Assembly (NCBI GenBank): GCA_016201015.1
Contig: JACQDQ010000194.1
Location: 11,149 to 75,148, forward strand
Direction: 5' to 3'
Source of the DNA: Pseudomonadota bacterium
GTDB lineage: Bacteria > Pseudomonadota > Alphaproteobacteria > CACIAM-22H2
DNA length: 64,000 nucleotides
In this document: positions 31,184 to 33,274 of the stretch, in pieces
Layout of the letters: the number at the start of each line of letters is the position of its first letter
How positions within the stretch are numbered: the first letter of the stretch is position 1
Translations under genes and position numbers: made by a program
Notes under the pieces: generated by a model
The model's database searches: none
Told to the model about the DNA's origin: nothing
What the model saw: the letters and a program-made list of their open reading frames with translations, nothing else

Positions 31184-31283
31184 TATAGCACGCCCACTCG
31201 GGAATTTTTATGACGACTTGGATTCGCCGGCAGCCCCTGGCGGATCGGTTTGACTGACGACATCGTAGTGTGAGCGAGGGATT

Positions 31284-32324
31284 ATGTTTTCGAAGCTGAC
31301 GGGTTGGATGTCCGCCGATATGGCGATTGATCTCGGGACCGCCAATACTCTGGTCTACGTCAAGGGCCGCGGCATCGTCCTCAATGAGCCGTCGGTGGTG
31401 GCCATCGCCGAGGAAAAGGGCAAGAAGAAGGTTTTGGCCGTTGGCGACGAGGCCAAGATGATGCTGGGCCGTACGCCGGGCTACATCCAGGCCATTCGCC
31501 CGCTGCGAGACGGCGTCATCGCCGATTTCGAAGTGGCCGAGGAGATGATCAAGCACTTCATCCGCAAGGTTCACAACCGCCGCTCCTTCGCCAGCCCGCT
31601 GGTCATCGTCTGCGTGCCCTCCGGTTCCACCGCCGTGGAGCGCCGCGCCATTCAGGAATCAGCCGAAAGCGCCGGAGCCCGCCGCGTCTTCCTGATCGAG
31701 GAGCCCATGGCCGCCGCCATCGGCGCCGGCCTGCCGGTGACCGAGCCGACCGGCTCGATGGTCGTCGACATCGGCGGGGGCACCACCGAAGTCGCGGTGC
31801 TGTCGCTCGGCGGCATCGTCTATTCGAAGTCGGTGCGTGTCGGCGGCGACAAGATGGATGAAGCAATCATCGCCTATATCCGCCGCAACCATAACCTGCT
31901 CGTCGGCGAATCCTCGGCCGAGAGGATCAAGAAGGAGATCGGCTCGGCCTGTCCGCCCGAGGACGGCGAGGGGCGGCTCATGGAGATCAAGGGTCGTGAC
32001 CTGATGAACGGCGTGCCCAAGGAGCTGGTGATCAGCGAGCGCCAGATCGCCGAAAGCCTTGCCGAGCCGGTGAGCGCCATCGTCGAAGCGGTGAAGGTCG
32101 CCCTTGAGCACACGGCGCCGGAGCTCGCGGCCGACATCGTCGACAAGGGTATCGTGCTCACGGGCGGGGGTGCGCTGCTGGGCAATCTTGACTACGTATT
32201 GCGGCATGCCACCGGACTGCCGGTGTCGGTGGCTGACGACCCACTGAGTTGCGTTGCGCTGGGAACCGGCCGGTGCCTCGAGGAAATGAAGGCATTGCGC
32301 AACGTGTTGATCGGAACCTATTGA
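31284..32324 (+). CDS. mreB: rod shape-determining protein MreB
   Basis: Actin-fold motifs [10 protein letters not shown] and [13 protein letters not shown]. Confidence 0.95.
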
Positions 32325-32389
32325 AGTAACCATGCGAGGAAAGCCCGCCGGGCTAACGGTCGCGATCGAGGATCGGGGCGGGTAACGCG

Positions 32390-33274
32390 ATGCGGATCGG
32401 ACGCCCTGGTTCAATGATGCGGCTCGCCGCGCCAATTAGGGCGCTGGCGCAGCGTTTCACGTTTCTCGGCCTCGTCGCGGTGTCGGCGGGGCTGATGGTG
32501 CTTGGCAAGGCCGAAGTGCCGCTGATCGAGCGGCTCCGCATGGCGGTCACGGACGCCTTCGTGCCGGTAATGGATGCGCTGTCGCGTCCGGCGGCGACGG
32601 TTGCGGATATCGGCGAGCGCATATCGCGACTGATCGATGTCAACGCGGAAAATGCGCGCCTCCGCGAGGAAAATGCACGGCTCTTGTACTGGCAGGCGGT
32701 GGCGCGCAAGCTTGACGCCGACAACCAGTCATTGCGAAACTTGTTGCGCTTCGCTCCGGACCCGGAGAAAAGCTTCATATCGGCGCGGATTGTCGCCGAT
32801 GCAGGTGGATCGTTCCTACGGTCCGTACTGATCAACGCCGGCTCGGCGAACGGCGTCGCCAAGGGCCAGACCGCGGTTTCCGGTGACGGGCTGGTCGGCC
32901 GCGTCGGCGAGGTTGGCATTCGCGCGGCGCGGATCCTGCTGCTCACGGACTTGAACAGCCAAGTGCCCGTGTTGCTCGAGGACAGTCGCGAACGCGCGGT
33001 GCTGGTGGGCGACAACTCGGACCGCCCGCGCCTCATGTTCCTGCCCGTTACGGTGAAACCCCAAGTCGGCGAGCGTGTCGTCACGTCGGGGCACGGCGGC
33101 GTGTTTCCACCCGGACTGCCTGTCGGCATTGTGGCGGCGGTTGGCGAAGGGCCGCCGCGCGTCAAGCCTTATGTCGAGTTCCACCGCCTCGACCATGTCC
33201 AGATCATCGATTATGGGCTGAACGGCATGCTGCCGGTCGGCGCGCCGCCACCCGCCCGACGCTCGGGGCGATGA
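32390..33274 (+). CDS. mreC: rod shape-determining protein MreC
   Basis: Position directly after mreB; coiled-coil N-terminus plus beta-rich C-domain. Confidence 0.85.
   Translation: MRIGRPGSMMRLAAPIRALAQRFTFLGLVAVSAGLMVLGKAEVPLIERLRMAVTDAFVPVMDALSRPAATVADIGERISRLIDVNAENARLREENARLLYWQAVARKLDADNQSLRNLLRFAPDPEKSFISARIVADAGGSFLRSVLINAGSANGVAKGQTAVSGDGLVGRVGEVGIRAARILLLTDLNSQVPVLLEDSRERAVLVGDNSDRPRLMFLPVTVKPQVGERVVTSGHGGVFPPGLPVGIVAAVGEGPPRVKPYVEFHRLDHVQIIDYGLNGMLPVGAPPPARRSGR

Follow-up and report, generated by a model that had tools for sequence, protein, structure and literature searches.

Gene content and arrangement of the window

The window, the whole 64,000-nucleotide stretch of DNA analysed here, carries an ilvBHC-leuA-mreBCD-mrdA-rodA arrangement with mreB near its midpoint, and 51 genes were called in it with a codon-model ORF picker. 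By Pfam, the genes to the left of mreB include a histidine kinase, a hopanoid-type cluster, hflK/C-like genes, a DegP-like protease, serB-like, DUF1015 and NnrS genes, miaA, ilvBHC and leuA. To the right lie mreCD-mrdA-rodA, a tRNA-Lys, sarcosine oxidase subunit genes, GGT, a deacetylase, a multihaem cytochrome cluster, DGOK, HU and a peptide ABC transporter. We refer to these two sides as the left and right blocks and to the lineages that they resemble as A (Magnetospirillum/Paramagnetospirillum-like) and B (another Rhodospirillales lineage). The main features, with the evidence on which each was assigned, are listed below.

47-31183: left block, lineage A, with a GCC/CTG/ACC/CCC-rich codon style (codon log-likelihood ratio, Pfam, DNA identity)
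29639-31183, + strand: leuA, 2-isopropylmalate synthase (Pfam HMGL-like and LeuA_dimer); last complete lineage-A gene
31284-32324, + strand: mreB (Pfam MreB_Mbl, positions 2-325 of 327); intact, in frame, mosaic
31667-31739: most probable interval for the join (informative sites, by maximum chi-square; outer bounds 31184-32140)
32325-64000: right block, lineage B, with NCC/NCG and CTG/CTC in balance (codon log-likelihood ratio, tetranucleotide PC1, Pfam)
32390-33274, + strand: mreC (Pfam MreC); first wholly lineage-B gene
33271-36820, + strand: mreD, mrdA (PBP2) and rodA (Pfam); all lineage B
36899-36974, + strand: tRNA-Lys(CTT) (ARAGORN and Rfam), 3′ of rodA

Codon and base composition along the window

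Composition changes abruptly and block-wise at one point in the window and is uniform on either side of it. Synonymous usage, tabulated gene by gene, gives GCC/GCG, CTG/CTC and ACC/ACG ratios of typically about 4-10:1 in each gene of the left block (47-31183) and of about 1:1 in each gene of the right block (32414-63907). We scored every gene with a leave-one-out synonymous-codon log-likelihood ratio (LLR), which is positive for left-type and negative for right-type usage; mreB itself scores 0.00. In pooled counts, the share of GCC among Ala codons falls from 0.75 on the left to 0.43 on the right (chi-square 241, p 5e-52), that of CTG among Leu codons from 0.74 to 0.42 while CTC rises from 0.13 to 0.35 (chi-square p 4e-45), and that of ACC among Thr codons from 0.84 to 0.41 (chi-square p 8e-36). 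Within each half, the synonymous fractions are alike for genes on the + and – strands. Total GC is 65.7% on the left and 64.2% on the right, and GC3 is 0.86 and 0.80, respectively.

A preliminary description of this DNA had claimed that codon style switches around mreB and that the right side is slightly lower in GC. Both claims hold: the LLR is positive in 24 of the 25 left genes (only a low-GC Panacea-domain ORF at 19076-19615 departs) and negative in all 25 right genes, with pooled p values from 1e-31 to 1e-52, and the GC values differ in the direction described. Among the codons it had named as diagnostic, the GCC/GCG, CTG/CTC and ACC/ACG contrasts stand; GAC does not, the pooled GAC/GAT counts showing no left-right difference (p 0.46), and for TTG no consistent left-right shift was found. 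Pro codons, which were absent from its list, also move from CCC (0.57 on the left, 0.21 on the right) toward CCG (chi-square p 3e-31).

As a frame-free check, we subjected strand-symmetrised tetranucleotide frequencies in 4-kb chunks to principal component analysis. PC1 accounts for 55% of the variance, being negative in 8 of 8 left chunks and positive in 8 of 8 right chunks, and the best contiguous split falls at 32000 (label-permutation p 2e-4). The tetranucleotide profile, which had likewise been put forward as a check, is not uniform along the window, and PC1 steps at 32 kb. The left codon style is not regained by 64 kb; once begun, the right style continues over at least 32 kb until the window ends.

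Codon style in related genomes

A scan for MreB with one genome per species gave 80 loci from Rhodospirillales and other alphaproteobacteria, at least 28 of which have in common the order ilvB-ilvH-ilvC-(x)-leuA-mreB-mreC-mreD-mrdA-rodA. As a matched-gene control, ilvBHC-leuA was compared with mreCD-mrdA-rodA in in-frame tblastn segments from the window and 28 relatives. The window shows the largest difference in synonymous usage of these 29 loci (0.130, with 0.091 for the next and a median of about 0.055), and it is the only one in which all three marker ratios collapse from one side to the other (0.84 to 0.41, 0.85 to 0.55 and 0.92 to 0.31). Tetranucleotide distance between 10-kb flanks is likewise largest in the window among 49 loci (40, median 17), with one control locus close behind at 36.

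Two lineage-A proxies were used: L086, a contig with the Paramagnetospirillum magneticum LeuA, and L001, a locus from a 'Magnetospirillum sp.' metagenome-assembled genome (MAG). Both have the left codon style on both sides of mreB, including in their own mreC, mreD, mrdA and rodA. The right style runs throughout L081, a Rhodospirillales MAG contig (JACQAF010000296.1), and throughout the relative L002, save for a near-zero LLR in the mreC of the latter (+0.003); L082, a JGI contig, is intermediate throughout. Because these relatives each keep one style across their own mreB, each codon style belongs to a whole lineage; the window alone has both.

Nearest relatives of the two blocks

The left block is close to Magnetospirillum and Paramagnetospirillum. 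Over 22190-32288 the window shares 86.6-87.9% DNA identity with L086, and at the protein level IlvB and IlvH are 95%, IlvC 98%, LeuA 94% and MreB 96% identical. Identity to L001 is 86.5% at the DNA level from leuA into mreB. The window LeuA is 94% identical to that of P. magneticum and 91-94% identical to other Magnetospirillum/Paramagnetospirillum proteins.

Against the same two proxies, the right half has 63-67% DNA identity, and amino acid identity is 49-50% for MreC, 39% for MreD, 58-59% for PBP2 and 60% for RodA. Its nearest relatives are L081 and L082, with 71-72% amino acid identity in MreC and 72-74% DNA identity (L081: 72% and 72.4%); the best non-self match of the window MreC, at 72%, is MBI3454007.1 from the same Rhodospirillales MAG (JACQAF). 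The same group takes in the JGI contigs L082-L084 (73.7% DNA identity), which match the left half of the window at 75-80%, a background level. PBP2 and RodA of the window are 64-68% identical to those of the relatives L002 and L003. The tRNA-Lys(CTT) gene after rodA lies in the same place in L002, L003, L081 and L082 and was not found in L001, whose sequence runs 5.4 kb past rodA; it is a synteny marker shared with the non-Magnetospirillum relatives.

Genes differ in how fast they diverge, and we therefore looked at other genome pairs with LeuA at least 91% identical. In these, PBP2 is 76-82%, RodA 82-83% and MreC 74-76% identical, whereas in the pair of the window and L001, with LeuA of the window 91-94% identical to lineage-A genomes, the values are 58, 60 and 49%. 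The drop in identity on the right side is not a gene-rate effect, because the control pairs stay high. A regression of PBP2 on LeuA identity places the window at z = –2.4, in a fit dominated by distant pairs; setting it directly beside the two other close pairs says more. On these identities, the nearest relatives of the two sides differ beyond what gene-specific rates would give. Best-hit taxonomy is inconsistent across the two sides, with LeuA at 91-94% and PBP2 at 58-59% to lineage-A genomes. Neither a B-specific intergenic probe (32331-32371) nor an A-specific probe (31206-31245) had an exact 40-mer match in JGI metagenome contigs, and the B parent itself was not recovered, 72% being the best MreC match.

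Position of the switch within mreB

The mreB gene of the window is a mosaic, with a 5′ part of lineage A and a 3′ part of lineage B. The position of the change was sought at informative sites, defined as those where the A proxies L001 and L086 agree and the B proxy L082 differs. All 42 such sites up to 31706 show the A state in the window; of those from 31712 on, 19 show A and 41 show B. Chi-square peaks at 48, and any split between 31667 and 31739 scores within 4 units of that peak. With one A proxy instead of two, the split fell at 31679/31685, with 45 A and 6 B sites against 24 A and 54 B sites (permutation p below 1e-4). Identity of the window to the A proxies declines along the gene, as listed here next to the identity of the A proxies to each other.

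31284-31680: window to A proxies 92-93.5%; A proxies to each other 92.2%
31681-31964: window to A proxies 87-88%; A proxies to each other 94.0%
31965-32140: window to A proxies 86%; A proxies to each other 96.6%
32141-32324: window to A proxies 73%; A proxies to each other 93.5%

The outer bounds are wider. On the left, 31184 follows the end of a LeuA identical to that of the A parent, and beyond 32140 on the right the window is 78% identical to L085, an A-parent-type contig, to which L001 is 93% identical. Codon usage puts the change point later, at 32052 (support 31938-32109), about 340 bp beyond the site-based estimate of about 31710. The codon estimate is probably biased, owing to its low resolution and to a shift of mreB toward the left style even in B-like genomes: the LLR of mreB is +0.045 in L082, where other genes are near zero, and –0.009 in L002, where most other genes score from –0.03 to –0.14.

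There are no Ns in the window, and the join is seamless. Around the join, the A and B proxies are about 88-93% identical in mreB, and their longest exact match within the gene is 44-56 bp. The default k-mers of MEGAHIT go up to a greater length than this, and the real parents may share more.

Provenance and a second deposit with the same LeuA

The MreC of the window is 100% identical to MBI3708031.1, deposited as 'MAG: Proteobacteria bacterium' on a 78,601-bp contig, and its LeuA is 100% identical to MBI3708029.1 on the same contig; MBI3708030.1 is presumably the record of the window's MreB. The same LeuA is also 100% identical to MBI3445479.1, from a MAG labelled 'Magnetospirillum sp.' The MreC of that MAG (MBI3445477.1, P0246), on a 38,094-bp contig, is A-type and 86% identical to the MreC of L001. 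Their consecutive accession numbers suggest that MBI3445477-79 are adjacent mreC, mreB and leuA, with MBI3445478 as MreB. In contrast to the window, a genome with this very LeuA thus seems to lead on into an mreC of Magnetospirillum type. P0246 is also encoded, without any difference, by a Logan contig from run SRR12113411, in which the 3′ end of mreB is 93% identical to L001 and 78% to the window.

The mreB gene is also where two other, independent assemblies end, at positions equivalent to 31965 (L081) and 32141 (L085) of the window. It is clearly hard to assemble; within ilvBHC-leuA-mreBCD-mrdA-rodA, it is a recurrent spot for breaks and misjoins where several Rhodospirillales co-occur.

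L081 (JACQAF) belongs to BioProject PRJNA640378, a study of Northern California groundwater. Assemblies of that project were made with MEGAHIT and scaffolded with IDBA-UD (PMC7906910). Its genome table lists JACQAD as 'Magnetospirillum sp. NC_groundwater_907_Pr1_S-0.2um_65_15', two entries before JACQAF, and both derive from the same 'Montesol18_Sp2_coassembly' at about 15x coverage by their names (PMC7906910). Judging from accession order and labels, MBI3445477-79 would be part of JACQAD, and PRJNA640378 would also be the source of the MAG of the window.

Origin of the join

We consider it highly probable that the window is an inter-genome misassembly, a chimeric contig produced by short-read metagenome assembly, in which the assembler, rather than any event in a cell, would have created the join. 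Two Rhodospirillales populations with the common gene order ilvBHC-leuA-mreBCD-mrdA-rodA would have been involved: A, a Magnetospirillum/Paramagnetospirillum-like organism, and B, a member of a more distant Rhodospirillales lineage. The assembler path may have crossed from genome A into genome B within the conserved mreB, at about 31.67-31.74 kb, leaving an in-frame mosaic mreB with about 31.7 kb of A sequence on one side and at least 32 kb of B sequence on the other. An assembly chimera is favoured because both halves hold core housekeeping genes and the right style extends for at least 32 kb. The breakpoint falls in sequence conserved between the source genomes, and a non-chimeric parent with the other continuation is represented by the 'Magnetospirillum sp.' deposit, the adjacency of its LeuA and MreC following from accession numbers.

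The preliminary description had located the change within or just after mreB, between 31200 and 32400, and had suggested that a chimeric assembly or recombination at a conserved gene lay behind it, in which case the halves might belong to different genomic contexts. The informative sites place the switch inside mreB, at 31667-31739. Such a join is supported by the MAG origin of the contig, the affinities of the two sides, the breakpoint, the uniform style of the relatives and the second MAG, with the assembler strongly favoured as its source, and the contexts appear to be Magnetospirillum/Paramagnetospirillum on the left and another Rhodospirillales lineage on the right.

One alternative is that the contig is correct and records a genuine recent homologous recombination anchored in the conserved mreB, in which a distant Rhodospirillales donor supplied at least 32 kb (or the roles were reversed). 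Such an event agrees with the full length and intact reading frame of the mosaic mreB and with a gene order that is kept across the join and matches at least 28 relatives; from the letters alone, a real recombinant and an assembler chimera look alike. We nevertheless regard recombination as improbable. The block of at least 32 kb is rich in core genes and has 63-67% DNA identity to A, far under the usual tolerance of homologous replacement, and a crossover would need to be anchored on a short identical stretch between genomes with about 35% DNA divergence. Its codon style is wholly unameliorated. The deposit with an identical LeuA has an A-type MreC nearby, and the event would then have to be extremely recent, with the recombinant coexisting with its unrecombined parent. 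In addition, the source is a short-read MAG, and other assemblies break at mreB too. Spelled out for the organism, this alternative asks for a groundwater Magnetospirillum that very recently swapped in at least 32 kb, including the essential elongasome genes mreCD-mrdA-rodA, from a family-level-distant member of the Rhodospirillales, with a functional hybrid MreB working alongside foreign MreC, MreD, PBP2 and RodA; stated in full, it is a shade more improbable still.

Natural heterogeneity within one genome, whether the right half were a chromid-like region or large genomic island or expression level lay behind the difference, is very unlikely. Some genes of the right half do look accessory (sarcosine oxidase, the multihaem cytochrome cluster and the ABC transporter), and the tRNA-Lys at 36899 is of a kind with this idea. 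Against it, the switch starts inside mreB and not at the tRNA-Lys, which lies 4.6 kb within the block, and we saw no integrase or flanking repeat at the boundary. Weakly expressed gene types occur in the left half too and have the same left style, no comparable difference is seen among the 28 relatives of the matched-gene control, and the orthologues are phylogenetically discordant. A genomic island in particular is ruled out by the boundary inside mreB, by the core nature of the first foreign-style genes (mreCD-mrdA-rodA) and by a composition that has not gone back to that of the left block by 64 kb.

Replication-strand asymmetry, with an origin at the cumulative GC-skew minimum near 31 kb and leading/lagging mutation bias behind the codon change, is hardly credible: + strand GC skew does go from negative to positive around 31-32 kb, but this flip arises because the C3-rich left style sits on mostly + strand genes, genes on both strands show one and the same codon switch where strand bias predicts opposite signs (which rules out an origin at the skew minimum), the switch is limited to certain codon families (NCC to NCG, CTG to CTC) with no general G3/C3 skew, and it coincides with phylogenetic discordance.

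Comparison with known systems

Inter-genome chimeric contigs that arise at conserved genes of co-occurring relatives are the target of curation by read mapping and of tools such as GUNC and metaMIC. The window resembles them in that its codon and tetranucleotide style and its nearest relatives switch abruptly at a highly conserved gene, local synteny is kept, the source is a MAG and other assemblies fragment at mreB. It differs from typical cases in that its parents would be divergent at about the level of families rather than strains, and in its seamless join and in-frame mosaic gene. Chimeras of such distant genomes are rarer than those between strains and need an unusually conserved stretch.

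The classic natural mosaic genes are the pbp genes of Streptococcus and Neisseria. Like these, the mreB of the window is a single ORF whose 5′ and 3′ affinities differ in a way that is detectable by maximum chi-square. Natural mosaics usually consist of short blocks that return to recipient sequence, with donors typically less than about 20-25% divergent, whereas the foreign style in the window continues for at least 32 kb without return, at a divergence of about 35%. In gene order and domains, the window matches the canonical mreBCD-mrdA-rodA cell-shape operon of rod-shaped Proteobacteria; its copy would be functionally ordinary, simply stitched together from two genomes.

The two halves of the window, and of the 78.6-kb GenBank contig, must not be read as one genomic context. 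Doing so could, for example, place the hopanoid and ilv/leu genes in the same organism as the sarcosine oxidase and multihaem cytochrome cluster, or take the GC-skew flip for a replication origin. The deposited MAG probably holds at least about 32 kb from another organism and, if the contig is a chimera, the MreB record (presumably MBI3708030.1) would be a hybrid present in no cell. The biological significance is accordingly small, and the window most probably reflects an artefact in the assembly of a public MAG rather than a biological feature.

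Contig ends and GC skew at mreB

Position 1 of the Rhodospirillales MAG contig from GenBank (L081) corresponds to window position 31965, and position 1 of the Logan contig of the left-half parent type (L085) corresponds to 32141. Both contigs, which are independent assemblies from related organisms, end within the 3′ third of mreB. In such communities, assembly graphs break or become tangled at this conserved part of the gene time and again. Over the whole window, the minimum of the cumulative GC skew falls near 31 kb (~31000) and mimics a replication origin. Its cause is the change in codon style: left-half genes, mostly on the + strand, use a C3-rich set of codons, and those of the right half a balanced one.

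Features of the left half

681-11668: hopanoid-type gene cluster of the Magnetospirillum-like half
19076-19615, +: ORF with a SocA/Panacea antitoxin domain
19473-19895, -: ORF antisense to and overlapping the preceding one
27767-29068: divergent antisense hypothetical gene

The hopanoid-type cluster includes a radical SAM protein with N-terminal and DUF3362 domains, an MMPL transporter, YdjC, an LPG_synthase_TM protein, a B12-binding radical SAM protein, a GT2 glycosyltransferase and an MlaC-like protein. Local GC drops to 0.60 at 18-21 kb, where the Panacea-domain ORF (GC 0.53, GC3 0.66) sits in surroundings of 65% GC; its antisense partner has no Pfam match. No other gene of the left half has unusual codon usage, so the Panacea-domain ORF is probably a small acquired toxin-antitoxin islet.

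In the P. magneticum-type contig L086 (compared over 7729-8416), a DUF2461 gene lies between ilvC and the divergent hypothetical gene; it is absent from the window (27764-27767). The hypothetical gene shares 55% amino acid identity with its L086 counterpart, whereas its neighbours share 94-98%; this left-half gene either evolves fast or has been replaced.

Features of the right half

36899-36974: tRNA-Lys(CTT)
37480-37902, +: partial DAO-family FAD oxidoreductase ORF (C-terminal quarter of the profile only)
47700-58218: predicted multihaem cytochrome cluster

The window, L081 and two related loci (L002 and L003) all carry rodA between PBP2 and tRNA-Lys. The JGI contig L082, a relative of the right half, lacks rodA in this interval (11402-13508): its PBP2 gene is followed directly by tRNA-Lys. 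Apart from the DAO-family ORF, the 1-kb gap between tRNA-Lys(CTT) and soxG is without annotation. This ORF covers profile positions 260-353 of 353 and nothing else, and looks like a gene remnant adjoining the tRNA.

Within the cytochrome cluster, two predicted multihaem cytochromes carry c554-like domains and a third has paired CXXCH and an MtrC/MtrF-like domain. A cNMP-binding 4Fe-4S protein and a FAD/NAD/2Fe-2S reductase are also encoded, together with two proteins that have no Pfam match. The cluster may represent an extracellular or periplasmic electron-transfer module of the right-half Rhodospirillales lineage.
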